Of a stretch of 28,682 nucleotides of DNA, positions 2,104 through 22,386 are shown one piece after another; position 1 is the stretch's first letter; every line of letters begins with the position of its first letter. The notes beneath the pieces are model-generated. The model saw nothing but the letters and a program-made list of their open reading frames with translations, did no database searches and was not told the DNA's origin. Position numbers and translations under genes: made by a program. Source of the stretch: a virus (Duplodnaviria; Heunggongvirae; Uroviricota; Caudoviricetes); the IMG/VR virus record IMGVR_UViG_2671180357_000002, positions 1 through 28,682 of that record; one strand, 5' to 3'.

Positions 2104-2156
2104 TTGTTACCTATTCTGTTTTGAGATAATAACACCAACAAAAAAACAATTTGTTT
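2104..2156 (+). promoter_or_regulatory. Sigma70-like promoter (-35 TTGTTA 2104-2109, -10 GATAAT 2125-2130) followed by conserved leader ACACCAACAA...AAACAATTTGTTT (palindrome 2144-2156)
   Basis: Hexamers read directly; same leader/palindrome recurs upstream of about ten other genes in the window. Confidence 0.5.
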
Positions 2157-2168
2157 AATGGTGCAATC

Positions 2169-4575: not shown

Positions 4576-4596
4576 AAGGCCATATGTTATGGCCTT
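4576..4596 (+). terminator. Hairpin AAGGCCA-tatgtta-TGGCCTT after the 3917-4545 coding region
   Basis: Perfect 7-bp inverted repeat; no strong T-run, so terminator function is tentative. Confidence 0.4.
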
Positions 4597-4603
4597 AAAT
4601 AAA

Positions 4604-4634
4604 TTGTTTTCTACCTTTTCTTATTTGTGAAAAT
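4604..4634 (+). promoter_or_regulatory. Sigma70-like promoter with extended -10 (TTGTTT - 18 nt - TGtGAAAAT)
   Basis: Near-identical ~35-bp promoter block recurs at 6424-6454 and 10317-10347. Confidence 0.5.
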
Positions 4635-5057: not shown

Positions 5058-5077
5058 TACTGTGTACATATACAGTA
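5058..5077 (+). promoter_or_regulatory. LexA (SOS) box TACTGTGTACATATACAGTA
   Basis: Matches the CTGT-N8-ACAG LexA operator consensus; lies 17-36 bp upstream of the umuD'-like start. Confidence 0.8.
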
Positions 5078-5093: not shown

Positions 5094-5483
5094 ATGGGCT
5101 TCCCATCTCCTGCGGCGGATTATGCTGAAAGCCGCATTTCTCTTGATCAGCAAATAATCAGGCATCCTTCAGCGACCTACTTCATGAGGGCGGCTGACAG
5201 CCATCACCGTGAGGGAATATTGCAGGGGGCATTGCTGGTGGTCGATTCCTCACTCACTCCTGTTGATGGTTCTCTTCTTGTATGTGCTATTGATGGGGAA
5301 TATCGCGTAAAACGATACAGGAAGTATCCGCGTCAGCATCTGGAGGATTTAAGAACCAGCAAGAAGGAAGCATTGCCAAAGGATGACGATGGATGCACTG
5401 GCAGTACTGCCGTGTTTGGCGTGATCACTCACATCATCAACGACGCAAGAAGTGGCGAATTTGATGATTGTCCTGTGATGTAG
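5094..5483 (+). CDS. umuD: UmuD'-like protein (S24 peptidase-family accessory subunit of translesion polymerase), encoded already lacking the N-terminal arm
   Basis: [30 protein letters not shown]... aligns by eye with E. coli UmuD from Gly25 onward ([29 protein letters not shown]); conserved Ser (ADSH) and Lys (RVKR) positions retained. Confidence 0.85.
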   Translation: [129 protein letters not shown]

Positions 5484-5527: not shown

Positions 5528-6271
5528 TCACTGCATGTTGCCGAATTTTTTGTTAAGACTTTTTCGTATTGTCTCTATGGTTTTCTCCCTATCTGAATAT
5601 AGCTCGCTAACTACATAGTCCATAATCTCAAAAGCGCCTTCGATATCTTTGTCCCGAACTTCATCAAACGTATGGCTGCCTGCGTTCCCCAAGAACTTTA
5701 TCGCCAAAAGATTTTGGGCGAGTTTGCTGCCCTCTTCCGGGATTTTTTCGATACGATGGTGCAATGGGATTGTCTTACCTTTATCATTTTGCGTAGGTAT
5801 ACCCATAGAGGTAAGGATATTTTCTACAGCGATTCTGATTAGGTTTGCAGCGGCACCTTGCTGCATTAAAAAAATGGAAAAAGCAGCCTTCAAGGGGCCA
5901 CTTACTTCATCCGGGCAGTTCTCTGGAATTTGAAAAACATTCAAGGAAGGAACAAAGCAAAGAGGTTTGTACCATTGATAATATTCGTCCACCGCTTCCT
6001 CTGGTCGATATTCTCTGTCCCATCCGGCGTTTCCTATGCACGCAACCGCTTCGCCACATTTTGCTCGAGAACATTTGGCCATACAGCTGAAATAGGACTG
6101 AGACATATCGTAATCAAACCAATCTTCATTTTGTGCTTTCCTGGTATCTAAAGACTCCTCTTCAACAAAACTATCTTGCATGATTTCCAGAGTCTTTTGT
6201 CCGCAGACCGGACAAGGCCAGTCCACATGTTTATCGCGGTAAAATTGATGGGAAATTTTATGAATAGCCAT
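5528..6271 (-). CDS. Zn-ribbon protein with a DUF4145-like C-terminal domain (candidate defence or abortive-infection protein)
   Basis: 247 aa. N-terminal Cys clusters CPVCG and CMAKCSRAKCGEAVAC; C-terminal LLAIKFLGNAGSHTFDEV...DYVVSELYS resembles the R-x-GN-x-x-H signature I associate with DUF4145. SD GGAG 9 nt upstream of the ATG. Confidence 0.6.
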   Translation of the reverse strand: MAIHKISHQFYRDKHVDWPCPVCGQKTLEIMQDSFVEEESLDTRKAQNEDWFDYDMSQSYFSCMAKCSRAKCGEAVACIGNAGWDREYRPEEAVDEYYQWYKPLCFVPSLNVFQIPENCPDEVSGPLKAAFSIFLMQQGAAANLIRIAVENILTSMGIPTQNDKGKTIPLHHRIEKIPEEGSKLAQNLLAIKFLGNAGSHTFDEVRDKDIEGAFEIMDYVVSELYSDREKTIETIRKSLNKKFGNMQ

Positions 6272-6423
6272 TTATTTCGCTCCATGCATATTGGCCGAAA
6301 TGAGTTCAAACGATACCAATATGAATAATAGAAGCATTACTTTAAGGCACTGTGGATTAAATACAAACCATGGCTACCAACAGAAGTAACAAAAGATACT
6401 GGTTACAAATACCCGTAAATAAA

Positions 6424-6485
6424 TTGTTTTCTACCTTTTCTTGATTGTGATAATAAACCACACAAGAAAACAAATTGTTTAGGAG
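6424..6485 (+). promoter_or_regulatory. Promoter (-35 TTGTTT 6424-6429, TGtGATAAT 6446-6454) + leader palindrome AAACAAATTGTTT (6468-6480) + RBS AGGAG
   Basis: Read directly; member of the repeated cassette family. Confidence 0.55.
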
Positions 6486-6493
6486 TGGCAAAA

Positions 6494-6793
6494 ATGCTGA
6501 ACATTACCCAAGCCTACCAAGTGGCATTGATTAGTGCATCACATACATCAGAGGAAGATGCTCGCCGATTCATGATCGCAAGCAAGGAGCTGGATTGGAT
6601 TTCACAAATTGACTACGGTTGCATAGTTCACGCCGGGTTACAGGATGATGATTGGAAAGATGACTTGCGTCGATACGGTATATCCGAGGGCGCGATTGCG
6701 AACATTCAGAAGGTACTTGATGTAGGCTTTGACTCTGTGCATTTCGATTGTGGAGCACCGGTCGTTGAAGGGCTTGAGTGCTGGAAATGGTAA
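6494..6793 (+). CDS. Hypothetical small acidic early protein (99 aa)
   Basis: ATG 6494 sits 8 nt after AGGAG; by my count ~17 D+E vs ~8 K+R. Confidence 0.6.
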   Translation: MLNITQAYQVALISASHTSEEDARRFMIASKELDWISQIDYGCIVHAGLQDDDWKDDLRRYGISEGAIANIQKVLDVGFDSVHFDCGAPVVEGLECWKW

Positions 6794-6829
6794 TCCGGCA
6801 ATCGTTTCATACAAGATAACGGAGAATAT

Positions 6830-7015
6830 ATGCTTAAAGAGGATTCATATCTTTTAAAGACGCTTGAAATGCGTGGCGTTGAACCTACAGTGAAAAACGC
6901 TCACGATATCTACCTTCAGTTTTCACCGGAACTGAAACGGCTCATAAATAAATATGGAGTGAATGACTCCGGCGTCAAAGCCATGATAGATGATGAATTA
7001 GACCATCTCACCTAA
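6830..7015 (+). CDS. Hypothetical small protein (61 aa)
   Basis: ATG preceded by GGAG at 6821-6824; same strand and operon as the preceding gene. Confidence 0.5.
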   Translation: MLKEDSYLLKTLEMRGVEPTVKNAHDIYLQFSPELKRLINKYGVNDSGVKAMIDDELDHLT

Positions 7016-7353
7016 ATAAACCGTTGACATTGGCGGTCACAAATTGATTCTTTTCTATAAGAATCCGTTGATCGCCACTATTCCCCTTCTATACATTCAA
7101 TCACATCCTTAAATATCAACAGGTTATAGTTGTTTATACCAACAAGAAAACAACTAAATAACAGATCAACGAAACGTCAATGCTTTCCCCCGATTTGGTC
7201 TAAAAAATTGACGTTTTCACACATCACTTCTTATACCCGCAATCCTACGCAGCAGATAGCGCCACAGCGTTCAATTCTCACTACAGACGGACATACACAC
7301 CACCAATAAAAATACACGCCCAAAATCGCTCCCGCTGCGTTACATAACCATAT

Positions 7354-7397
7354 AAACAATTTGTTTTCAGGAATAACAAAACAACTAAATAACACAT
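7354..7397 (+). promoter_or_regulatory. Cassette-family leader (AAACAATTTGTTTT ... AACAAAACAACTAAATAACAC) with no convincing ORF downstream
   Basis: Same palindrome as other cassettes; downstream 7398-8510 encodes only low-complexity ORFs. Confidence 0.4.
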
Positions 7398-7415
7398 ATG
7401 CCATTCCCCAAAACA

Positions 7416-7507
7416 ACCCACCTCTTCCTGTCAGGCTACCGAAAAGACCCACCTCATTGCCCCAGGCTACAGACCACCCACCTAATATCCCCAGGCAACC
7501 GAGAACG
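7416..7507 (+). repeat. Three tandem ~30-bp direct repeats (ACCCACCT-N10-CAGGCWACMG), iteron-like
   Basis: Units begin at 7416, 7447 and 7476; a paralogous triple repeat lies at 11409-11496. Confidence 0.6.
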
Positions 7508-7533
7508 CGGCTCGCACGCGCAAACCCCGATAC

Positions 7534-7826
7534 GTCATTACCCAATACACGGAGAAGAACAGCCAGAACGAAACCCCGGACAAACCCAGACAAGAACAGG
7601 AGCCGTCACAATCTCGTTTACCCACCATTACCCCGAAAGAGAGCGCAAATTCCTGAATAGCAGGGAACGCCATTACTTCATATGCGGAGAACAACTAAAG
7701 CGCCCTACTGCCATTACCCACACTTCCATCAATTCACGTAAACGAAGAGAAAAGCGCACCTGCCATTATTCAATACACGGAGAAGAACACTCCCCAAAAC
7801 GACGAGAACAACCCAGAAAAGAACCA
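7534..7826 (+). repeat. Two ~65-bp direct repeats (7534-7600 and 7761-7826) plus dispersed GCCATTAY motifs in a CA-rich tract
   Basis: Both copies share CATTAYYCAATACACGGAGAAGAACA; the plus strand is strongly C+A rich across 7400-7900. Confidence 0.5.
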
Positions 7827-8064
7827 CCTCAAGAACAATGAAACCACATACGCCGGTAGAAAGAACAAACCACCCATTTCACCCACAGGAATAGTCGCCG
7901 TATTGAGCGTTATCAGAGAGAAGGTTTATGCCCACATAAGAGAGAAAATTTGTGGGAGGTATAAGTGGGAAGGGAAGGAGGGGTATCGCCACTTTCTTCG
8001 TATAAATTCAAGCCATAGTTTTCATCCCCCGTAACGTCCCTTTCCACCCCTTCGGTCAGCCTTC

Positions 8065-8260
8065 GGGCCATCCAGGGAAAAGGCCATGTCCCTTTTCAGG
8101 AACGGGAGCGTCGCCGCAGGGAAAAGGCTGGAGGTTTTCAGGGAAACGGTGGGAATCCCGCTGTACGAACCGGGAAAAGGCTGGCTGCCGGTCGGGAAAC
8201 GGGTACATCCCGGTACAGAGTGAGGGACGACTGCGGGAGCGGTGCGGGAAATCTTCGGGA
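8065..8260 (+). repeat. Array of at least six (C/G)GGGAAA(A/C)GG motifs at 20-30 bp spacing; begins with GGGCCATCCAG
   Basis: Motifs at ~8073, 8117, 8139, 8171, 8193 and 8243; a related module lies at 12106-12298. Confidence 0.55.
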
Positions 8261-8522
8261 GTGCGCCTTACTCTTCACTCGCCTGAAAATCGCGGGGGAG
8301 TGTCATTCCCTCTCGTGCAGCTACTGGACTCCAGTCTGCCAGACCATCATCGGGTCTCAAGCGATTTCAGTAGGTTTTCGGGGAGAAGAAAATTCTGCCC
8401 ACCAGCCCTGCGGCGCGCGTAGAGCAGAATATCGTAAATACTGGTTCCCGTGTCGTTCACGGATATTCACTGCCCAGCCTGGCTTTCACGACATAAAATC
8501 CTTTTTCGCCTTTGTCTTATTG

Positions 8523-8581
8523 CGATAATAACACCAACAAGTAAACAACATGTTTAGACGTTATATAAACGAAGTGAGGAT
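8523..8581 (+). promoter_or_regulatory. Cassette promoter/leader (-10 GATAAT 8523-8528, palindrome AAACAACATGTTTA 8543-8556, RBS GTGAGGA)
   Basis: Variant of the conserved cassette; palindrome core AACATGTT. Confidence 0.5.
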
Positions 8582-8587
8582 GAAGAG

Positions 8588-8806
8588 ATGATTAAGATGC
8601 CTGTGACGGTTGAGGTGTGGGGCGTGGATTCTCTGGCTGAGTGTCTGGATGCAGTGGGGCCGGAGTTGTACCGCAAGTTGTGGTCGTTCGTCCCGGCAGA
8701 AGGGGAATCGCCCAAAGGGAAGGATATCTGGCACCTGCTTAGTGAAGATGAAAAGCGGGAGCTGGTGGACGCGGTACACAGCGAGTTCCCGGACGACGAA
8801 GATTAA
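8588..8806 (+). CDS. Hypothetical small acidic early protein (72 aa)
   Basis: ATG 8588 after GTGAGGA; ~17 D+E vs ~7 K+R; ends in PDDED. Confidence 0.6.
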   Translation: MIKMPVTVEVWGVDSLAECLDAVGPELYRKLWSFVPAEGESPKGKDIWHLLSEDEKRELVDAVHSEFPDDED

Positions 8807-8919
8807 GAGTGAGACCACCAGCACGGTGGCTTTTGTCGCTATTAACCTCCGGGGCAGCGCAGCACCGTAACGATATACTTTGTGGCCGTTTTCTTGCTGG
8901 TATTGTTTACGCAATTCAG

Positions 8920-8938
8920 AAAACAACATGTTTAAGGA
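8920..8938 (+). promoter_or_regulatory. Cassette leader palindrome AAAACAACATGTTTA + RBS AAGGA
   Basis: Same variant palindrome as at 8543-8556, directly upstream of ATG 8946. Confidence 0.45.
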
Positions 8939-8945
8939 TTGCTTT

Positions 8946-9275
8946 ATGTTTGCAAATATCGACATCAACCAAATCAAGAAAATGACTCAAAAAGAGTTTG
9001 ACCAGTTTTATGAGTTAGAAGGTTGGTCTTCCACGCTGATCAATTCGCGCTGGGTGCTTGAGCTGATGACTCGTGATGATGCTCCTGCTTTGATTATTTG
9101 CGACATGGGTGAAGATGCTGACTTTATGGATATGAGCGAATTTTGTGTGGACACATACAACCGCAGCCAGAAGTACTACTTCACATGCGATAGCGAGAAT
9201 GACGTGATTTCTAAGCTCTATCTTCACCTTGTCCAGCATTGGGACGTGCAGGAATTCCTTGAGTTATTCGCGTAA
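8946..9275 (+). CDS. Hypothetical small, strongly acidic early protein (109 aa); DNA-mimic-like composition
   Basis: ATG 8946 lies 7 nt after AAGGA; ~21 D+E vs ~8 K+R by my count. Confidence 0.6.
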   Translation: MFANIDINQIKKMTQKEFDQFYELEGWSSTLINSRWVLELMTRDDAPALIICDMGEDADFMDMSEFCVDTYNRSQKYYFTCDSENDVISKLYLHLVQHWDVQEFLELFA

Positions 9276-9285
9276 GCCCAACCAA

Positions 9286-9306
9286 AGCCAGCACCGCCTG
9301 CTGGCT
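9286..9306 (+). terminator. Hairpin AGCCAGC-accgcct-GCTGGCT after the gene ending at 9275
   Basis: 7-bp perfect stem; followed by the conserved GCCGCAGGGAA motif. Confidence 0.5.
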
Positions 9307-9411
9307 TAACTTCTCTGTAGCCGCAGGGAAGAACCACCTTTAGATAATTCATGTGCCTGAGCAATATGCTTTGTAGCCGTTTTTACACTGGTATTATTTA
9401 CGCCATTGAGA

Positions 9412-9430
9412 AAACAATTTGTTTACGGAG
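9412..9430 (+). promoter_or_regulatory. Cassette leader palindrome AAACAATTTGTTTA + RBS CGGAG
   Basis: Directly upstream of ATG 9436. Confidence 0.5.
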
Positions 9431-9435
9431 TGGTG

Positions 9436-9747
9436 ATGAATACTTCATTGGCGCTGGGTCTTGCTGAAGGCCAGGAGAGAAAAGAAAAACCAACCTTAAT
9501 GGGGCATCTCACATTGCTGGATATCGTAGCGAATGGGACTTCTATCCGTCTGTTTCGTGAAAAAGCCATTACCTTCGACGCGGGCAATTTTACGCGCTAT
9601 GTGATGGTAGTTCGTCGCCAGCGTGGAAGAGGGTGGATGTCGGTCCAGAAAATGTGGCCAGAGGACCAGCTTGAACTGGCGCTGATGGAAGCCAACCGTG
9701 TCGCCCAACAAGAGATCCAACGAGCGTCTGTTCAGGCGGTAGCTTAA
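9436..9747 (+). CDS. Hypothetical small early protein (103 aa)
   Basis: ATG 9436 lies 5 nt after GGAG; preceded by cassette leader. Confidence 0.55.
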   Translation: MNTSLALGLAEGQERKEKPTLMGHLTLLDIVANGTSIRLFREKAITFDAGNFTRYVMVVRRQRGRGWMSVQKMWPEDQLELALMEANRVAQQEIQRASVQAVA

Positions 9748-9781
9748 ACATGTGCAAGCAGTAGTTAGTCGAATGTACGAC

Positions 9782-9809
9782 AGCCCCGCCAATCCTTCGG
9801 GGCTTTTTT
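9782..9809 (+). terminator. Intrinsic terminator AGCCCCG-loop-CGGGGCT + T6
   Basis: 7-bp GC-rich stem followed by TTTTTT. Confidence 0.8.
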
Positions 9810-9836
9810 GTATTGTAAGTACTTACTTATGATAAT
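9808..9836 (+). promoter_or_regulatory. Sigma70-like promoter (-35 TTGTAT, -10 GATAAT, 17-nt spacer) whose spacer contains palindrome GTAAGTACTTAC (9815-9826)
   Basis: Hexamers and palindrome read directly; the same palindrome recurs at 22371-22386 and as variants at 16841-16852 and 25812-25831. Confidence 0.5.
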
Positions 9837-9868
9837 AAAATTAAAAATTAAACACTAAGGAGAGTGAA

Positions 9869-10264
9869 ATGACCGTTAAACGCGAAAATCTGACCCTGGA
9901 TATGTATTATGCATCAGAGACGGAAAATGGAGACAAAGTTGCAAAAATTACAATTGTGCTACGCGATAATGCCTCCGGCGAAGAAGTTCACACCAGTACC
10001 TTAACTCGCACCGGCGAGGCCACAAAGGGAAAATATTCGGTGCGTTACCAAAGCATCAGTAATGCTTCTGACCCTTTACTGATAAAACTGGAAACTCATT
10101 TCCGTGGCGCGGATCAGACGTTGTTTGAAAATTTGATGAAAAAGGTCGATGCGGTTTATACATCGAGTTTAAATACCAATAGTACCTGGATGGGACAACA
10201 CGGTCTGCGAATAATCTCCGGCGAAAAGATCGACACCATTGTCCCTGAAAGCGTATTCGCTTAA
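9869..10264 (+). CDS. Hypothetical protein (131 aa)
   Basis: Strong RBS AAGGAGAG 5 nt before the ATG; bounded by intrinsic terminators on both sides. Confidence 0.7.
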   Translation: MTVKRENLTLDMYYASETENGDKVAKITIVLRDNASGEEVHTSTLTRTGEATKGKYSVRYQSISNASDPLLIKLETHFRGADQTLFENLMKKVDAVYTSSLNTNSTWMGQHGLRIISGEKIDTIVPESVFA

Positions 10265-10273
10265 TCCTCTTTG

Positions 10274-10300
10274 AATGGCGCGTAAACCGCGCCATTTTCT
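10274..10300 (+). terminator. Intrinsic terminator AATGGCGCG-taaac-CGCGCCATT + T-run
   Basis: 9-bp perfect stem followed by TTTTCTT. Confidence 0.8.
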
Positions 10301-10310
10301 TATTCCCGAT

Positions 10311-10347
10311 AACAATTTGTTTTCTGCCTTATCTGATTTGTGAAAAT
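10311..10347 (+). promoter_or_regulatory. Promoter: palindrome AACAATTTGTTTT overlapping -35 TTGTTT, extended -10 TGtGAAAAT
   Basis: Same promoter block as at 4604-4634 and 6424-6454. Confidence 0.55.
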
Positions 10348-10381
10348 GATTTCACTGAAGCAACTTAATAAGGATACCATC

Positions 10382-10756
10382 ATGGGACTTGATATCTATA
10401 TCGAGACGCAGCCTAAAAACGATCTGAATAACGAGGCATCCAGAAAGCAGGTTGCTTACTTCCGTAAGTTCAATGCGCTCGTTGGGTGGATGGAGCGCAA
10501 CGTAGGTGAAGTCGAAAATTGTGAGCTTTTAGAATTAACGATGAATGACATTTGTTTTCTGAAGGCTCATTTGATGCACATAAACGAAAGTAATTGCGAA
10601 GTGTACTTACCTACCCGGGAAGGTTTTTTCTTCGGCAGTCAGGAGTACGATGAAGGTTACTGGCATGACGTGGATAAGCTGAAAAAACTTGTGGAAGACC
10701 TGATCAGGAACCACGACTTTCACAATAACAGACTGACGTTCCGTGCCTGGTGGTAA
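10382..10756 (+). CDS. Hypothetical small acidic early protein (124 aa)
   Basis: ATG 10382 lies 7 nt after AAGGA; upstream ATGs fall inside the promoter. Confidence 0.6.
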   Translation: MGLDIYIETQPKNDLNNEASRKQVAYFRKFNALVGWMERNVGEVENCELLELTMNDICFLKAHLMHINESNCEVYLPTREGFFFGSQEYDEGYWHDVDKLKKLVEDLIRNHDFHNNRLTFRAWW

Positions 10757-10758
10757 AT

Positions 10759-10902
10759 ATGGGCGATTTCAAGAAACGCCTGAAGGAGAGAGCCGAGATG
10801 GTCAGAAAGCGAAACGCCTCTTCTGTCATAAGATACGCAAGGCAGTTTAGTCGCAACAACAAATCAGTTGAGGAAAAGATCCTTAGCGTAATCGGGCGAT
10901 AA
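10759..10902 (+). CDS. Possible small basic protein (47 aa; alternative start ATG 10798 with SD AAGGAGAG)
   Basis: Found by manual translation (below the ORF-track size cutoff); start overlaps the upstream stop (TAAATATG); followed by a hairpin at 10908-10931. Confidence 0.3.
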   Translation: MGDFKKRLKERAEMVRKRNASSVIRYARQFSRNNKSVEEKILSVIGR

Positions 10903-10907
10903 TTATT

Positions 10908-10931
10908 AAGGCCACCAGCATTGGTGGTCTT
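10908..10931 (+). terminator. Hairpin AAGGCCACCA-gcat-TGGTGGTCTT
   Basis: 10-bp stem with one mismatch; near-identical to the hairpin at 11379-11402. Confidence 0.5.
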
Positions 10932-11040
10932 AAATGACTTTTAATAACCGAAGGTTAGTTTGAAACCTGGCTATCAACTTCCAGAACCTTTCTTGTGTAT
11001 TCAGCCTGTATTAACTTCTTTTATGCCTTATCTACACTGC

Positions 11041-11084
11041 GATAATTACACCAACAAGAAAACAATATGTTTACGCAGTGAGGA
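11041..11084 (+). promoter_or_regulatory. Cassette promoter/leader (-10 GATAAT 11041-11046, AAAACAATATGTTTA 11059-11073, RBS GTGAGGA)
   Basis: Variant of the conserved cassette. Confidence 0.5.
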
Positions 11085-11091
11085 TATGCTC

Positions 11092-11373
11092 ATGACTGAT
11101 TTCACCATTACCCCTAAAGCACAAAATGTATTCCTTGAATCATGGCTGGACTTGCCGGAAACAGAACAGCAAGAAATGGATCATGTGGAATATGACGAGC
11201 AGGTAAGCACGCGATTCTTCCACTTTGAGGGCTGCGTTTACGACATTGCCGACTTCATGCGAGATGACCGCTTCCCTGAATGGCACGCAAGCTATCCACT
11301 AAACGCCTTCGCCATGCTGATGATCCGTGTGGATGATTCAGGGGATACCATCGACATCGGTCTGCTCCACTAA
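11092..11373 (+). CDS. Hypothetical small, strongly acidic early protein (93 aa); DNA-mimic-like composition
   Basis: ATG 11092 lies 7 nt after GAGGA; ~20 D+E vs ~5 K+R by my count. Confidence 0.6.
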   Translation: MTDFTITPKAQNVFLESWLDLPETEQQEMDHVEYDEQVSTRFFHFEGCVYDIADFMRDDRFPEWHASYPLNAFAMLMIRVDDSGDTIDIGLLH

Positions 11374-11378
11374 AGAGT

Positions 11379-11402
11379 AAGGCCACCAATGCTGGTGGCC
11401 TT
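11379..11402 (+). terminator. Hairpin AAGGCCACCA-atgc-TGGTGGCCTT
   Basis: Perfect 10-bp stem immediately after the stop at 11373. Confidence 0.55.
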
Positions 11403-11408
11403 GAATGA

Positions 11409-11496
11409 CCATCCTGTTTCCCGCAGGCTAAAAACACCAACCTCTTACCTCCAGGCAACCGACAAACCCACCTGTTCCCGTCCGGCTACCGCAACT
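11409..11496 (+). repeat. Second copy of the triple ~30-bp iteron-like direct repeat
   Basis: ACCAACCTCTTACCTCCAGGCAACCG and ACCCACCTGTTCCCGTCCGGCTACCG match the units at 7416-7507. Confidence 0.6.
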
Positions 11497-11502
11497 TTCC
11501 AC

Positions 11503-11570
11503 TTTGACGCCTTATTCGTACAACGATAATTAACACCAACAAGAAAACAATTTGTTATTTACGATAAGGA
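11503..11570 (+). promoter_or_regulatory. Cassette promoter/leader (-35 TTTGAC, -10 GATAAT 11525-11530, AAAACAATTTGTTA 11545-11557, RBS AAGGA)
   Basis: Best-formed example of the conserved cassette. Confidence 0.6.
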
Positions 11571-11577
11571 ATTAATC

Positions 11578-12060
11578 ATGAATTTTATCGCTACTGTAAA
11601 CGCACCCGCACATGGCAATATCGCTGTAACGTTCTCTGATATTGAAAAACGAGTACTTGGTGCATGGCGCGACAATGAGACGGTAGAACTGTCAGCACAA
11701 GAAAAATGCATTATTGCACGCGACATCATTTGCAAACGTCGTTACTCACGGGTAATTGAGAAAGCGTATGTCGCAAATTCTGGCTTCGGAACATTTGTCT
11801 TCCCGGTACGCTCCGGGCGATTCTGCCAGTCCAAGCTGATTGAGTTCGCTACGCAGATTTCTGTCTGGATTAAAACTCAATCGTCGTTCAAATTTTCCGA
11901 CGATGAAGCAGTATCGCAGGGGATGCGGATCGCCAACAATGCAATAAAATGCAAAAACATTACGTATGCCGCTGGCGTTGACACATGGAAACTGTTTTGC
12001 GCTAACTTTATGCTGAATGTATACGCAAGCAACCGCATCCACATCCTTGATGGCGTGTAA
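11578..12060 (+). CDS. Hypothetical protein (160 aa)
   Basis: ATG 8 nt after AAGGA; followed by an intrinsic terminator. Confidence 0.65.
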   Translation: MNFIATVNAPAHGNIAVTFSDIEKRVLGAWRDNETVELSAQEKCIIARDIICKRRYSRVIEKAYVANSGFGTFVFPVRSGRFCQSKLIEFATQISVWIKTQSSFKFSDDEAVSQGMRIANNAIKCKNITYAAGVDTWKLFCANFMLNVYASNRIHILDGV

Positions 12061-13936: not shown

Positions 13937-14464
13937 TTAAAACGGTAAAATTCGTTCGACCCAATCGAACATGGCGACTGTCTTCCTACCGTCCCCCATG
14001 TTGAGTGTGACCTGACAAGCGTCAACGCCTCTTGACACCCCTTCTATTTCACGACCGTCCGCCATGTAGACCCTTATAGACTTCTGCATCTCATGGGCCT
14101 GGCGACAAATTTTGAAGAAATCACGGCGAGATGGCCGATTGTCCACATAGTCTGGGTGTATCGTTGTCCGACCCGTGAAGTCGTGTGCAATGCCTTCTGT
14201 CACACCTGATTCAATCGTGCTGATTCGCTCAAGTGGGAGCCTTATACGATTATCTTTGTCGAACGGGGCAGGGCAAAGATCGACCTTGTTGCGTGACGAC
14301 ATGAGACCCTGAACATACATGCAGAACACCTGACCATCTTCCATCGTGACCCTTACAGGAATAAGAGATTTGCGCCAGAACATCAGCGCTTTCTCCACGT
14401 TGGTGTAATCGCGCGGCCAGACTTCTGCAGGAATCCCGTAGGTGATGTCAGTAATATTCGTCAT
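13937..14464 (-). CDS. Hypothetical protein (175 aa) with two beta-barrel-like segments
   Basis: Start at ATG 14464 (4 nt after the lipoprotein stop) chosen over the longer overlapping ORF to 14575. Confidence 0.55.
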   Translation of the reverse strand: MTNITDITYGIPAEVWPRDYTNVEKALMFWRKSLIPVRVTMEDGQVFCMYVQGLMSSRNKVDLCPAPFDKDNRIRLPLERISTIESGVTEGIAHDFTGRTTIHPDYVDNRPSRRDFFKICRQAHEMQKSIRVYMADGREIEGVSRGVDACQVTLNMGDGRKTVAMFDWVERILPF

Positions 14465-14950: not shown

Positions 14951-15229
14951 TCAATCGAGGCGTTTTAGAATATCGGCCAGATCTTCTTTGGTCATACCCG
15001 AGTTTTCGTAAATCTTCATGACCTTTTCACGAGCCTTTGCAGTAGTCTCTAATGACGTAGCTATCTTATCAAAATCACCCATCGTCATATTGGACAGCAC
15101 CAGATTGATGATGTCTGCTTTTGACAGTTTTATGCTGCGTTCACGCAGTCGATTCTGAAAGGTCTCTAGTTTATCGTTTGCTTTTTCGGTTAACTTAACC
15201 TGGCAGTTAATAGCGCGTTTCTCGCTCAT
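14951..15229 (-). CDS. Hypothetical small protein (92 aa), translationally coupled to the helicase
   Basis: Start 2 nt after the helicase stop; K/E-rich; possibly a small DNA-binding protein (weak inference). Confidence 0.55.
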   Translation of the reverse strand: MSEKRAINCQVKLTEKANDKLETFQNRLRERSIKLSKADIINLVLSNMTMGDFDKIATSLETTAKAREKVMKIYENSGMTKEDLADILKRLD

Positions 15230-15231
15230 GC

Positions 15232-16791
15232 TTACTCTCTATCCAAAACAGTGAAATCGAATGTGCTGCCAACCGGCAAGACCCCCTCGGCAAACCCAGG
15301 CGTCGTGTCGATAATGTGTTTCCGCTCATATGAATGCGACATGAGGTATTTGTTGCTCACGTCGATGAAGTCGGTAATAAAGCACACGTTAGCCTGATTT
15401 TTCTTGGCTCGTAAGCCACGACCGACACGTTGTCTCATTTCAACTTCTGCTTTCCCGCCACCACCCAGAATCACCGCGCCTACGCTTGGAACGTCGACAC
15501 CAACATCCAGAATGGTTGAACCAATGAGAACATCTATCTTGCCTGCCGCCAGACTATTAAGTTTTGCTTGTCGGGTAGTCTGGTTTGATTCTCCGTAGAT
15601 GAAATCGACCTTGAGGCCACTCTCTTTCATCATTTCCATCAAGATCTGACCATGACGCTTCAGACGAACCAATGTCATACAGTTCAGACCGTGACTCTTG
15701 TACATTAGCGCTTCACGCACAATAGCTTCGTTGCGGCCCAGATTATAGACGATGCCTAACTGATAGGCTTTCTGGTAAGCCGTGCTCATTCCAACCCTAA
15801 AATTCAGGTGTTTTGAAGCAAGTTCGACTCTAATCCGCGCCTCATCTGGAGTGTACGCGATTTTATGATATAAAAAGTATGGTTTCGCTAAAATACCTCT
15901 GTCGATCAAATATTTCTCCGTTACTTTTATCTCGATGCGACCCGCAACGGCCATGAGACGCATATTTGCTTCAGTCGAATCCTTCATGAACGGCGTAGCT
16001 GTCAGCGCCAGACGGTAGTCGGCATTGGTACACAACCGGGCTATATCGTAGAAGTTTGAGCCGGATGATTCGTGCGCTTCTTCCAGAATCAGCAGAGAAA
16101 CGCTGGACAGGAAGCGCTTAACCAATTCCCGGCGTTTCAGGTGATACTGTTTTTTCTCTGGAGATGCGTCGCGCGACGGCTCTTCGAGAAAACTAACAAG
16201 GGTCTGAACCGTGGCAACGTTGATATGGCGCGATACCTGGAACTCACCAGATCCAATCACCCCAACTTTCTGACCTTTCAGCCACGGCTCGCCATTCTTC
16301 GCGCGGTAGTCGATGGATTTCTGGAAGTTCTCTGCCATCTGGAACATCAGAACCGATCGCGTGGTTAAAAACAGCGTCATACGACCAATGCGAGCAGCAG
16401 CCTTACACGCTACGTTCGATTTACCGCCACCCGTCGCAATCTGGGCAATCATCATCCCTTCGCGCACCAGTGTTTCCACTGTCTGATCCTGATACGCGTA
16501 GTCCGGGTTATACGGGAATGGGTTAACCACCGGATTCGGCTTACCCAGCGCGGGAGCTTTTTCCTTGCGAACATGCACGCATTTGATGCCAGCTTTCAGA
16601 AGATTGGTCGCAACTGGCTTCGCAAACCCAGCCGGGAACGCGTTTTTACTCCAGTTGAACATCGTGCTGGTCCCTTTCCAGTCACCAGCCTCCACTTCAT
16701 AGCTCAACATCTCCTGAACAAGCCGTTTCACGTTGTCATCAGCGCCAGAAATCAGCGCATTGACTGCATTTGATACAATCCGAACAGTCAT
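15232..16791 (-). CDS. Superfamily 2 DEAD/DEAH-type helicase with ~100-aa N-terminal extension
   Basis: Motif I IATGGGKS, motif II LILEEAHES, motif III LTATPF, motif VI QRVGRGLR; strong SD AAGGAAAGAGG upstream. Confidence 0.85.
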   Translation of the reverse strand: MTVRIVSNAVNALISGADDNVKRLVQEMLSYEVEAGDWKGTSTMFNWSKNAFPAGFAKPVATNLLKAGIKCVHVRKEKAPALGKPNPVVNPFPYNPDYAYQDQTVETLVREGMMIAQIATGGGKSNVACKAAARIGRMTLFLTTRSVLMFQMAENFQKSIDYRAKNGEPWLKGQKVGVIGSGEFQVSRHINVATVQTLVSFLEEPSRDASPEKKQYHLKRRELVKRFLSSVSLLILEEAHESSGSNFYDIARLCTNADYRLALTATPFMKDSTEANMRLMAVAGRIEIKVTEKYLIDRGILAKPYFLYHKIAYTPDEARIRVELASKHLNFRVGMSTAYQKAYQLGIVYNLGRNEAIVREALMYKSHGLNCMTLVRLKRHGQILMEMMKESGLKVDFIYGESNQTTRQAKLNSLAAGKIDVLIGSTILDVGVDVPSVGAVILGGGGKAEVEMRQRVGRGLRAKKNQANVCFITDFIDVSNKYLMSHSYERKHIIDTTPGFAEGVLPVGSTFDFTVLDRE

Positions 16792-16840: not shown

Positions 16841-16852
16841 GTAAGTGCTTAC
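16841..16852. promoter_or_regulatory. Palindrome GTAAGTGCTTAC in the divergent promoter region between the helicase operon and the late operon
   Basis: One-mismatch variant of GTAAGTACTTAC. Confidence 0.4.
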
Positions 16853-16855
16853 ACA

Positions 16856-17554
16856 ATGTATTGTATCAAAAATATGGGTGTGAAAATTACGATTCTACAG
16901 GTGGAAGTCGCGAACCTGCGTCCGAACCCCTGGAATACCAACTCCGTTGGGGCGCAAAACTTCGAAAAACTGAAAGGTTCCATCGAAAAGTTGGGCTTTT
17001 TTAAGCCAATTCTGGCGCGAGAGCTGGACGGCGGCATTTTTGAAATTCTCGGTGGCGAACATCGCTGGCGTGCCGCGATGGAGCAGGGCATTTCAACGGT
17101 TCCCGTCATCTCCGTGGGCAAAATTAACGACCTGGTGGCCAAACAGATGTCCCTCGTCGACAACGAGCGCTACGGCGAAGACGATCAGGTCGCTTTGCAG
17201 CGCTTAATCGAAGAAATCCAGTCTGAAATCGACTACCGGTTGTCCGATATCGCCCCGTATGACGACGAAATGGCGGCAACGCTCGCCAAAGCATCCGTTA
17301 TCGATCTTGAAGCGCTGGAAGCGCTCTCCCGCGGCGATGACGAGCCGATCGGTGAGGACAAACGCGAGAAAATCGAGCGAGTCGGTGCTGAACACCAGAC
17401 GATGCGCTTCAAAGTGACGTTCGATGCGTCAGATCGCGTCGCCGATACCATCAAAACCATCATCAAAGAGCAGGGAATCAATACCGGTAACGAAATGGAG
17501 AACGCCGGGGAAGCCTTGGTGTGGCTGGTCGACTACTACAAGGAGCGTATGTAA
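16856..17554 (+). CDS. ParB/Srx-fold (ParB N-terminal nuclease-like domain) protein 1
   Basis: LRPNPWN ... LKGSIEKLGFFKPILAR ... ILGGEHRWRAA match the ParB N-domain signature; start could be ATG 16874. Confidence 0.8.
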   Translation: MYCIKNMGVKITILQVEVANLRPNPWNTNSVGAQNFEKLKGSIEKLGFFKPILARELDGGIFEILGGEHRWRAAMEQGISTVPVISVGKINDLVAKQMSLVDNERYGEDDQVALQRLIEEIQSEIDYRLSDIAPYDDEMAATLAKASVIDLEALEALSRGDDEPIGEDKREKIERVGAEHQTMRFKVTFDASDRVADTIKTIIKEQGINTGNEMENAGEALVWLVDYYKERM

Positions 17555-18222
17555 TGACCAAGAACTTTGAAATCGTATATCGAAACCCGGCAGAACTTAT
17601 CCCGTATGAGATGAACGCCAAAAAACATGACGAACAGCAGATCCGCGACCTGGCGGCTGCCATCAAAAAGCGCGGTTTTGACCAGCCGATCACGGTCGAC
17701 AAGCACGACGTCATCATTACTGGTCACGGTCGTCGCGAGGCGGCACTTCTGGCTGGTCTGGAGCGTGTGCCTGTCATCGTTCGCGACGATCTGAGCGAAG
17801 AAGAAGTGAAGGCGAAGCGTCTTGAAGACAACCGCCTGGCCAGTATTGACTACGACGCCATCAAATTGCAGCAGGAACTGGAGTCCCTGGTGCTGGGTGA
17901 CGTTGAGGTCTTTGGTTTTGAAGAGCGAGAGCTGAACGTGCTTGTTGGCAGCATGACCGAAGAGATGGAAACAGGCTCTCTGGTGCTCGATCTGGGTGAA
18001 GAGACGGAACGCCAGAAAGAAGAGCACACCGAGATCAGTCGCGAAGTGGCCTCTGAAGAAGTCCGAGTCATCGACGTATTGGGCTTTAAAACGCTCCCTG
18101 CTGGCTCTGCCATTGTGGTTGGGGATTTGCTTGCCCACATGGAAGAAATTACGGGAGAAAGCGGGGTAGACGCTTTCGTGGCGTATGCGGAGAAAGTTTC
18201 CTCTGGGGAGCTGGCTGCATGA
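17554..18222 (+). CDS. ParB/Srx-fold (ParB N-terminal nuclease-like domain) protein 2
   Basis: NPAELIPYEMNAKKHDEQQI ... ITGHGRREAA; ATG overlaps the upstream stop (TAATG); SD AGGAG at 17541-17545. Confidence 0.8.
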   Translation: MTKNFEIVYRNPAELIPYEMNAKKHDEQQIRDLAAAIKKRGFDQPITVDKHDVIITGHGRREAALLAGLERVPVIVRDDLSEEEVKAKRLEDNRLASIDYDAIKLQQELESLVLGDVEVFGFEERELNVLVGSMTEEMETGSLVLDLGEETERQKEEHTEISREVASEEVRVIDVLGFKTLPAGSAIVVGDLLAHMEEITGESGVDAFVAYAEKVSSGELAA

Positions 18223-20356: not shown

Positions 20357-20393
20357 TTCTGAATACTCCCCAGCCCGGTTTTAAACACCCAGA

Positions 20394-20437
20394 AAACAAA
20401 TTGGTTAGGCACTGAATTAAACAAGTTGTTTAGGAGC
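20394..20437 (+). promoter_or_regulatory. Two cassette-type palindromes (AAACAAATTGGTT and AAACAAGTTGTTTA) + AGGAG upstream of the small terminase gene
   Basis: Same motif family as the early-gene cassettes. Confidence 0.45.
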
Positions 20438-20471
20438 GCAAGGATGCGCTCTGAGTGTTTTAGAGGGATCT

Positions 20472-21113
20472 ATGACTGTAGAAAAAGACGAGAGCAAAAC
20501 TCGCCTGACACCAGCTGAGTGGGCAGAAGCCGAAGCGAAGTGGACTTCCGGCGAATACACACTCTCCAGGCTGGAGGAAGAGTACGGCATTCGTCGTGAA
20601 ACGCTCTCCAGACATTTCAAAAAGCGTGGATTAGAGAAAGGCGCGGACTCCGTTGGGAAGATGGTGCGCGAGTCGCTCAAATCCGACGCAGAGCTGCGTG
20701 CGAAGGCGCGTGCAGAGAAAATCGAAGAGCGCCGGACTCGTTACGACGATTGGGCGTTCGCACTCGGTCGTATGGTGATGCATGAGGTGGCCACAGCCAA
20801 GAAGGACGGCAGGCCACTGGCAGCCATCGAAGATGACCTGAAGAGTCTCCAGCGTGCCAGCGGCACACTCGCTAAGTGCTTCGAAATATCGTCGAAAGCG
20901 CTCGGTATGGATCGCGTGGAGAACGAGGACGACGAAATCCCGAACCTGGTATTTGGCGAACTTACGCCTTCCCAGGTGGCGCAGCTGCGTAAGGAAGATG
21001 ATGAGCCGGATCTGATTGATGACGATCTGCTTGAGTCACTCGAAGAGGAAGCACTGAGCGAAGCTGAGGGCGATTCTGAAGCGTCTGGTGATGAAAGTGA
21101 TGGGAGCGTCTGA
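20472..21113 (+). CDS. terS: Terminase small subunit (putative)
   Basis: Immediately upstream of the large terminase; N-terminal HTH-like segment (YGIRRETLSRHFKKRG); highly acidic C-terminal tail. Confidence 0.6.
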   Translation: MTVEKDESKTRLTPAEWAEAEAKWTSGEYTLSRLEEEYGIRRETLSRHFKKRGLEKGADSVGKMVRESLKSDAELRAKARAEKIEERRTRYDDWAFALGRMVMHEVATAKKDGRPLAAIEDDLKSLQRASGTLAKCFEISSKALGMDRVENEDDEIPNLVFGELTPSQVAQLRKEDDEPDLIDDDLLESLEEEALSEAEGDSEASGDESDGSV

Positions 21114-22372: not shown

Positions 22373-22386
22373 GTAAGTACTTACCT
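22371..22386. promoter_or_regulatory. 16-bp perfect palindrome AGGTAAGTACTTACCT between terminase and portal genes
   Basis: Perfect palindrome; same core as the promoter-spacer palindrome at 9815-9826. Confidence 0.5.

Follow-up and report, generated by a model that had tools for sequence, protein, structure and literature searches.

Among the closest described counterparts of the locus presented here are the promoter-early stem-loop (PeSL) cassettes of T4-type phages (Arbiol et al. 2010, PMC2839356) and the Salmonella protein FljA, which is reported to block translation of fliC mRNA (PMC2652032). The DNA in question, a stretch of 28,682 nucleotides from a virus record (IMG/VR IMGVR_UViG_2671180357_000002, positions 1 to 28,682; hereafter the window), is that of an SSU5-like phage-plasmid. 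It is 82–91% identical to known members, and its relatives include Escherichia phages CMS-2020a, PhiR41_1 and Cyrano, Salmonella phage SSU5 and several Klebsiella elements. With the PeSL regions it shares repeated sigma-70-like promoter modules, nearby terminator-like stem-loops, small genes of unknown function and a plastic organisation. The repeated modules here carry a 17-bp motif, which precedes about 20 transcription units of SSU5-type phage-plasmids, lying in their promoters or leaders, and is a real, conserved cis-regulatory element of this family. The scripted part of the analysis covered a portion of the related genomes.

The core of the element, AAACAA-N-TTGTTT (AAACAAYWTGTTT, allowing at most one mismatch), yields 18 strand matches in the window, compared to 0.28 expected and a maximum of 2 in 100 shuffles. 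When the flanks are included in the scan the window holds 13 sites, all 13 of them intergenic. A consensus tabulated from 34 oriented sites of the window and SSU5 shows that the conserved unit is an asymmetric 17-mer, AGAAAACAAnTTGTTTA, that is AGAAAACAA-N-TTGTTTA. The 6-1-6 dyad is nearly invariant in these sites, with an asymmetric AGA at one side (A in 30, G in 28 and A in 31 of the 34) and an A at the other (29/34), while the central position accepts any base (11 A, 5 C, 7 G, 11 T). The symmetric C and G of the arms are kept in 34/34 and 31/34 sites, and in 38/39 and 36/39 sites of a 39-site set. Nine copies in the window are of the leader type, with 13-mer starts at 2144, 6468, 8543, 8921, 9412, 11060, 11545, 20394 and 20419; four are reversed (4597, 6417, 7354 and 10310), and a half copy lies at 7130–7166. 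The first-pass annotation had listed positions for the motif, every one of which holds a copy, and had divided them into two flavours. Both are indeed present, but the second is the same core on the opposite strand, so that the two flavours are one element in two orientations; the reversed copy of the main module carries the flank reversed as well (TTGTTTTCT). Scanning a whole sequence collection with the 17-mer gave mostly single chance matches among those listed. Judged by eye, the motif is unlike the consensus sites of IHF, Fis, LexA, PurR and NrdR, chromosomal parS, and the hairpin promoters of the N4 type.

The position of the element relative to predicted promoters is equally regular. 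Seven of the nine leader copies start 22–23 nt past the TG of an extended −10 element (TGnGATAAT or TGGTATTRT), and three of the four reversed copies end 16 nt ahead of TGTGAWAAT. If transcription starts some 7 nt after the −10 element, the leader 17-mers would lie at about +5 to +21, and those three reversed copies would span about −45 to −29 of the predicted promoter. Where a promoter has both copies, their centres are separated by exactly 51 bp in the window, in Cyrano and in SSU5. In about two thirds of the leader sites the 3′ end abuts the Shine-Dalgarno (SD) sequence, 11–21 nt before the ATG. The sole property common to all copies with a recognisable promoter is a position inside the region that RNA polymerase is predicted to contact.

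When orthologous sites are aligned, the arms prove to be conserved among the relatives from E. coli, Salmonella and Klebsiella, whereas the central base and the sequence separating the motif from the ATG vary, in part through insertions and deletions. No reversed copy deviates from the consensus by more than one mismatch in any of the genera compared, although the promoter-distal arm of these copies is the weaker one. Cyrano (108 kb) has at least 11 exact copies, plus relatives with one mismatch, which are located upstream of terS, parA, a DnaB-type helicase gene, CYRAN_58, a TciA-like gene, CYRAN_87 and the small-gene cluster. About 21 good sites are present in SSU5, including those of terS, parA, dnaB, cobT, nrdB, ant and a DNA methyltransferase gene, and the copy at the minus-strand ydfZ gene is oriented with that gene. 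All sites of the window, SSU5 and Cyrano are intergenic and lie at predicted promoters or leaders. A Klebsiella element carries 8 sites in 24.5 kb (0.14 expected), and a distant relative, whose homologue of the FljA-like protein encoded in the window is 58% identical, has 8 matches at two mismatches or fewer, 3 of them exact, compared to 1.73 expected. The signal is therefore family-wide and extends beyond the early small genes. An operator of the whole early set, as originally suggested, is too narrow a description for a motif that also precedes parA, dnaB, nrdB, cobT, ant, the DNA methyltransferase gene and terS; conversely, gene 9869 lies inside the small-gene cluster and uses a different palindrome.

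Duplication and shuffling of cassettes, which the same annotation had read from the architecture, is borne out by comparison with the relatives. At Cyrano 95751–95883, the promoter of the window’s 8543 module and the leader of the 8946 gene meet exactly at the motif, and the intervening gene 8588–8806 and the 8898 promoter are missing. SSU5 93598–93794 contains one dual module (93662/93713) where the window has the separate modules 10309–10347 and 11038–11073; the insert between the 10310 and 11060 modules of the window consists of two genes and is flanked by a repeated GCCTTATC promoter segment. These junctions support a shuffling process like the one known from the PeSLs of T4. Since the modules are repeated, we propose that they also act as homologous-recombination linkers for the gain and loss of gene cassettes. 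Terminator-like hairpins are enriched between 4400 and 12700 (24, compared to 9.0 ± 3.0 expected), and several abut modules (4576–4596, 10273–10297), but the hairpin sequences are not the conserved part of the repeat. The block that had been thought to follow the hairpins in conserved form, GCCGCAGGGAA, does occur, although exactly only three times (8113, 9320, 12106).

An RNA hairpin or riboswitch-like element was considered as the main feature and rejected. Folding of the 17-mer into a hairpin yields only −0.7 kcal/mol, entire leaders are no more stable than their shuffled versions (z-scores of +0.12 to −1.7), and Rfam returned no match at the gathering threshold within the window. Over the five stem pairs of 39 oriented sites there are 0 compensatory changes, and 12 unpaired cells compared to 1 wobble, with no excess over shuffles, which argues that the sequence is conserved and not the pairing. 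The position of two copies is of note in this context. The reversed copy at 10310, at least, should be outside the sense transcript, being placed beyond the terminator hairpin of the preceding unit and ahead of the promoter that follows, and the dnaB copy begins 4 nt past the only −10 candidate.

A shared operator for one regulator, the function put forward in the first-pass annotation, remains the simplest reading of sites so far above chance, and it could act at the level of DNA or of RNA. We incline towards a DNA operator of an element-encoded repressor, located inside the RNA polymerase footprint, while giving this reading slightly less than an even chance. The sigma-70 extended −10 promoter/leader modules would then make up a family whose conserved end is the repeat, with the 17-bp site as functional core. 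One element-encoded repressor, we infer, would bind this site and collide with RNA polymerase at every copy, be it at about +5 to +21, as in the standard module, over the start site, as for dnaB, or at about −45 to −29, as for the reversed copies. In the strongest modules the core promoter would be flanked by two copies at a distance of five helical turns. About 20 transcription units would in this way form one regulon, silent in the plasmid (lysogenic) state, whose members would comprise accessory genes, parA, dnaB, nrdB, cobT, ant and terS. Published RNA-seq values are available for Cyrano lysogens (median 9.8). Most motif genes have background RNA levels (5.7–12.8), among them terS (7.1) and Cyrano genes 58, 85, 87, 101 and 110 (5.7–7.5), which fits repression in the plasmid state, either at the DNA or at the RNA level. 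Exceptions above background are parA (49.8), dnaB (21) and CYRAN_111 (25.5), and dnaB has its own transcript, its value of 21 comparing to 6 for the upstream gene.

Several observations weigh against such a DNA operator. The site is asymmetric, its leader copies always have the same polarity relative to transcription, and in about two thirds of them the 3′ end abuts the SD sequence; a symmetric DNA operator needs none of this. The gene parA has the motif and yet is expressed in lysogens. The transcription starts are predicted from sequence, and a generic promoter scan missed these promoters, which have a poor −35 element. Most copies moreover come from one or a few ancestral modules, and the constant spacing is therefore weak independent evidence. 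Finally, Pfam gave no helix-turn-helix or ribbon-helix-helix domain among about 30 candidate proteins, and neither structure prediction nor a fold search supported a ribbon-helix-helix fold for a 92-residue core protein that had been considered.

The fixed sense polarity of the leader copies, about two thirds of which end 11–21 nt ahead of the ATG, would suit an operator that is read in the leader RNA. A FljA-family protein would in this case bind the 17-nt element beside the SD sequence, block ribosomes and destabilise the mRNA, creating a post-transcriptional regulon that resembles the one of T4 RegA and has its analogy in the action of Salmonella FljA on fliC mRNA. We consider this possible but rather doubtful. 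In its favour, the elements do encode a full-length FljA-family protein (PF03614), a core gene of the SSU5-like group that is kept in Klebsiella elements and unlinked to flagellin, so that another target is expected, and its RNA is low in lysogens and rises elsewhere. FljA has been reported to block translation of fliC mRNA (PMC2652032), and the fliC leaders of S. enterica arizonae and diarizonae carry CAAGTTGT, the motif core, 7 nt before the SD sequence. This likeness is weak, however, as it amounts to a shared 8-mer with 8 of 12 specified positions, and CAAGTTGT is missing from the E. coli fliC leader. Conservation extends to the reversed copies, even though at least the one at 10310 should lie outside the sense mRNA, and some copies are located 84–150 nt from the annotated start. 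A perfect dyad with no compensatory change and negligible hairpin energy is also unlike an RNA structure, and a second palindrome of these elements, GTAAGTACTTAC, could equally be the target of the FljA-like protein.

The proximity to the SD sequence could also be explained without any dedicated trans factor, if the 17-mer were simply part of a standardised promoter/leader, serving as an A/U-rich translational enhancer before the SD sequence and, in the reversed copies, as an A-tract combined with the TTG of the −35 element, and if its similarity were kept by recent duplication and gene conversion between modules. Most copies do lie in a few homologous modules, for which recombination is documented; the element is A/U-rich and stands immediately ahead of the SD sequence, where it resembles the T7 gene 10 leader sequence, AAATAATTTTGTTTAAC; and the promoter-distal arm of the reversed copies is degenerate (AAATAA, TAACAA, AAACAT), with TTGTTT being invariant. 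General A/U richness would not, however, need the near-invariant symmetric C and G, and the exact 6-1-6 arrangement is kept in non-homologous contexts (parA, dnaB, cobT, nrdB, terS) and across genera while its neighbours drift. We therefore judge this explanation improbable. Still less probable, and indeed very unlikely, is a site for a host factor, either a host transcription factor or Hfq acting on the (ARN)-like AAC-AAG-AAA tract and the U-rich half. The leader sequence ACCAACAAGAAAACAA-UUUGUUU joins A-rich and U-rich halves, the two kinds of sequence that are bound by the two faces of Hfq, and several genera of enterobacteria serve as hosts. Hfq sites are not marked by strict dyad symmetry, though, no known E. 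coli regulator consensus was matched by eye, and the 13-mer does not occur in a small sample, about 830 kb, of enterobacterial chromosome gathered for another purpose.

The candidate reader of the motif that we single out is the FljA-family protein encoded at 13937–14464 (minus strand), in the operon of a UvsW-type helicase (15232–16791). It matches PF03614 over its full length (E = 6.7e-95, profile positions 1–170 of 170), and in the phage collection 12 of 12 full-length FljA-family matches are found in SSU5-like phages. In a large protein collection, homologues at 53–95% identity are mostly encoded on contigs of about 100–115 kb, within the same helicase operon, whereas chromosomal “phase 1 flagellin repressors” are only 35–38% identical; the phage-plasmid clade is large and stands well apart from flagellar FljA (about 35% identity). 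The gene never adjoins a flagellin gene and is retained in elements of Klebsiella, a classically non-flagellated genus, so its target should differ from fliC. The family, which is without a solved structure, is marked by a conserved N-terminal DITYGxPAEVWPRDY arm and an RRDFFxIC helix, and its predicted fold is a tandem Hfq/Sm-like one. Lysogens contain little RNA of the FljA-like gene (18), and the level is 8–16-fold higher in other conditions. Relatives whose FljA-like proteins are 58% and 83% identical have the same motif, but this comparison does not discriminate, since all homologues of at least 53% identity with known context occur in SSU5-like synteny. Taking the DNA and RNA models together, we regard the FljA-like protein as a plausible reader of the motif, somewhat short of a probable one. 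The more specific idea that a tandem Hfq/Sm-like FljA protein stops translation of about 20 mRNAs through their leaders, with flagellar FljA as a domesticated offshoot of this mobile-element regulator, appears unlikely to us, if not strongly so. A weak alternative is the core 92-aa protein already mentioned (14951–15229, minus strand), whose gene lies between those of the helicase and the FljA-like protein. Its Cyrano orthologue is at 11 times background in lysogens, and its N-terminal pattern is reminiscent of ribbon-helix-helix proteins. In other small proteins of SSU5 and Cyrano (the ParA partner, Cra, a “repressor-like” protein and Ant), Pfam detected no clear DNA-binding domain.

The individual modules differ in what they precede. 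The first leader copy (AAAAAACAATTTGTTTA, 2141–2157, plus strand) follows TGAGATAAT at 2122, and the ATG of a 567-aa open reading frame (ORF) for a methyltransferase homologue lies 12 nt past its core; the orthologous site is at SSU5 82468. The adjacent region 330–2023 encodes a type I restriction-modification methylase and is 95–97% identical to the P1-like phages vB_EcoM-673R5 and phi456. It is absent from the SSU5-like relatives, and the SSU5-like similarity starts at about 2110, with this first module, which makes for a mosaic joint. The reversed copy at 4596–4612 (minus strand; reverse complement AGAAAACAATTTATTTA) is directly preceded by the hairpin 4576–4596 and ends 16 nt before TGTGAAAAT (4626); it is conserved at Cyrano 85818 and SSU5 85602. 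The dual module at 6416–6481 (plus strand) combines a reversed copy (6416–6432), TGTGATAAT at 6446 and a leader copy (6465–6481), with centres 51 bp apart, and would drive 6494–6793 (DUF5983) and 6830–7015. The same layout and spacing are found at Cyrano 93114/93165 and at SSU5 88319/88370 and 93662/93713. A half copy (ACCAACAAGAAAACAAC, 7130–7166, plus strand) lacks the 3′ arm and is duplicated with 7361–7397, and the reversed copy 7353–7369 (minus strand) stands at the head of a 1.5-kb non-coding repeat region.

All modules downstream of this region are on the plus strand. At 8521–8556, TGCGATAAT (8521–8529) and a leader copy (8540–8556) precede 8588–8806 (72 aa). Two paralogous modules follow, both of which align to SSU5 92689–92786: 8898–8934, with TGGTATTGT at 8898, a leader copy at 8918–8934 and the ATG at 8946, 12 nt past the core, and 9389–9425, with TGGTATTAT at 9389, a leader copy at 9409–9425 and the ATG at 9436. 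The module 10309–10347, with a reversed copy at 10309–10325 and TGTGAAAAT at 10339, sits between the terminator 10273–10297 and the next transcription unit (10382–10902). At 11038–11073, TGCGATAAT (11038) and a leader copy (11057–11073) would drive 11092–11373, and at 11525–11558, GATAAT (11525) and a leader copy with the 3′ arm TTGTTA (11542–11558) would drive 11578–12060. Two forward copies 25 bp apart (20391–20432) lie upstream of terS (20472); no extended −10 element was recognised for them, and they are identical at SSU5 56/81 and Cyrano 82. The second abuts AGGAG and the ATG, at 20443, of a short upstream ORF (20443–20472), which has a strong AGGAG-N7-ATG start and overlaps the terS start out of frame; it may provide translational coupling or encode a leader peptide. 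The idea that each copy drives one small gene is thus only partly correct, as the units also include the 567-aa ORF, two two-gene units, the terS operon and the 1.5-kb non-coding stretch. The promoter core GCGATAAT(T/A) at 8521–8529 and 11038–11047 resembles tCGATAAATT, the high-affinity motif of H-NS, and silencing of the A/T-rich modules by H-NS may be worth considering.

The motif cluster is a run of small genes, bounded on one flank by a DUF4145 gene (5528–6271, minus strand) and on the other by a conserved block that consists of a hypothetical gene, the FljA-like gene, the UvsW-type helicase gene, two ParB-like genes, ATPase genes and terS. The ParB-family proteins are encoded at 16856–18222, and their Pfam match is restricted to the ParB N-terminal domain. 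Within the cluster, the 1.5-kb stretch 7020–8580 is without a credible ORF and has a strongly C/A-rich plus strand (GC skew −0.28, AT skew +0.29). It is about 86% identical to SSU5 90404–92786, related units occur at 11421–11490, and an Rfam search with it returned no match. Its repeats comprise three tandem units of about 30 nt, ACCCACCT-N8-CCCAGGCTACCGA, as well as four copies each of CATTACCCAATACACGGAGAAGAACA and CAGGGAAAAGGC, and it may represent iterons, a centromere, a second origin or a long non-coding RNA. A very basic 47-aa ORF (10759–10902) lies downstream of gene 10382–10756. Its Cyrano orthologue CYRAN_109 is 6-fold over background in lysogens while the gene immediately upstream is at the floor, which suggests an internal promoter or a stable small RNA. 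Outside the cluster, a perfect LexA-type box (CTGTgtacatatACAG, 5060–5075) precedes a gene for an S24 peptidase-only, UmuD-like protein (5094–5483), whose Cyrano orthologue CYRAN_98 is strongly expressed in lysogens (148, compared to the median of 9.8).

The second palindrome mentioned above forms a family of its own, (a)TAG-GTAAGTACTTAC-CTA(t), in most cases with a −10-like TATnAT 1 nt further downstream. The window has 4 matches compared to 0.49 expected, with sites at 9815–9826 over the promoter of gene 9869, at 16841–16852 in the 65-bp divergent region between the helicase and ParB genes, and at 22373–22384 at the terL–portal junction. SSU5 has about 17 such sites across its late and DNA-metabolism regions, and the palindrome looks like a separate class of promoter or operator.

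SSU5-like phage-plasmids occur widely among clinical Enterobacteriaceae, and resistance genes are among their cargo. Our literature search turned up no account of the control of lysogeny and lytic growth in these elements, of the present motif, or of a link to FljA in phage-plasmids; a 2026 preprint on heteroresistance concerns a different family. One operator-like site over partition, replication, nucleotide-metabolism, anti-repressor, packaging and accessory genes offers a concrete regulon and, with it, a short list of candidate regulators, and the module junctions reveal a route by which accessory genes are swapped. Should the FljA-family protein read the motif, the presence of a “flagellin repressor” among the core genes of elements in non-flagellated hosts would be accounted for, and a tandem-Sm translational repressor would join the known controls of phage expression.

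Each of the known systems compared here shares some features with this arrangement and differs in others. Like the PeSLs, the modules account for cassette differences between relatives, with junctions inside the repeats, between the −10 element and the SD sequence. They belong, however, to a temperate siphovirus phage-plasmid and not to a T4-like myovirus, their A/T-rich 13-bp dyad downstream of the −10 element differs from the G/C-rich stem-loop that forms the PeSL core, and the motif also precedes core genes. The C1 system of P1 likewise involves a phage-plasmid with many scattered copies of an asymmetric operator of about 17 bp, in either orientation, overlapping promoters and sometimes paired; the motif nevertheless has no sequence similarity to the C1 operator, ATTGCTCTAATAAATTT, and no C1 homologue was identified here. 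KorB and KorA of RK2 are comparable in that about a dozen copies of a 13-bp 6-1-6 palindrome lie at or close to promoters of genes for replication, partition, and transfer or virion functions, and the element described here encodes ParB-family proteins as well. The operator sequences differ, though, and the ParB-like proteins match the ParB N-terminal domain only. T4 RegA offers the precedent of one phage protein silencing many early mRNAs through A/U-rich sites at translation starts, as might be the case here, but its sites overlap the AUG and are non-palindromic, and no RegA-family match was found among the 20 window proteins scanned against Pfam. The pair of FljA and fliC, lastly, shares with the phage-plasmids a FljA-family protein, a predicted leader site just upstream of the SD sequence and, over 8 of 12 specified positions, the CAAGTTGT core. 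It differs in that four copies of the window are reversed and are not leader sites near an SD sequence, and in that the phage-plasmid clade is about 35% identical, has no flagellin linkage and would act on some 20 putative targets in place of one.

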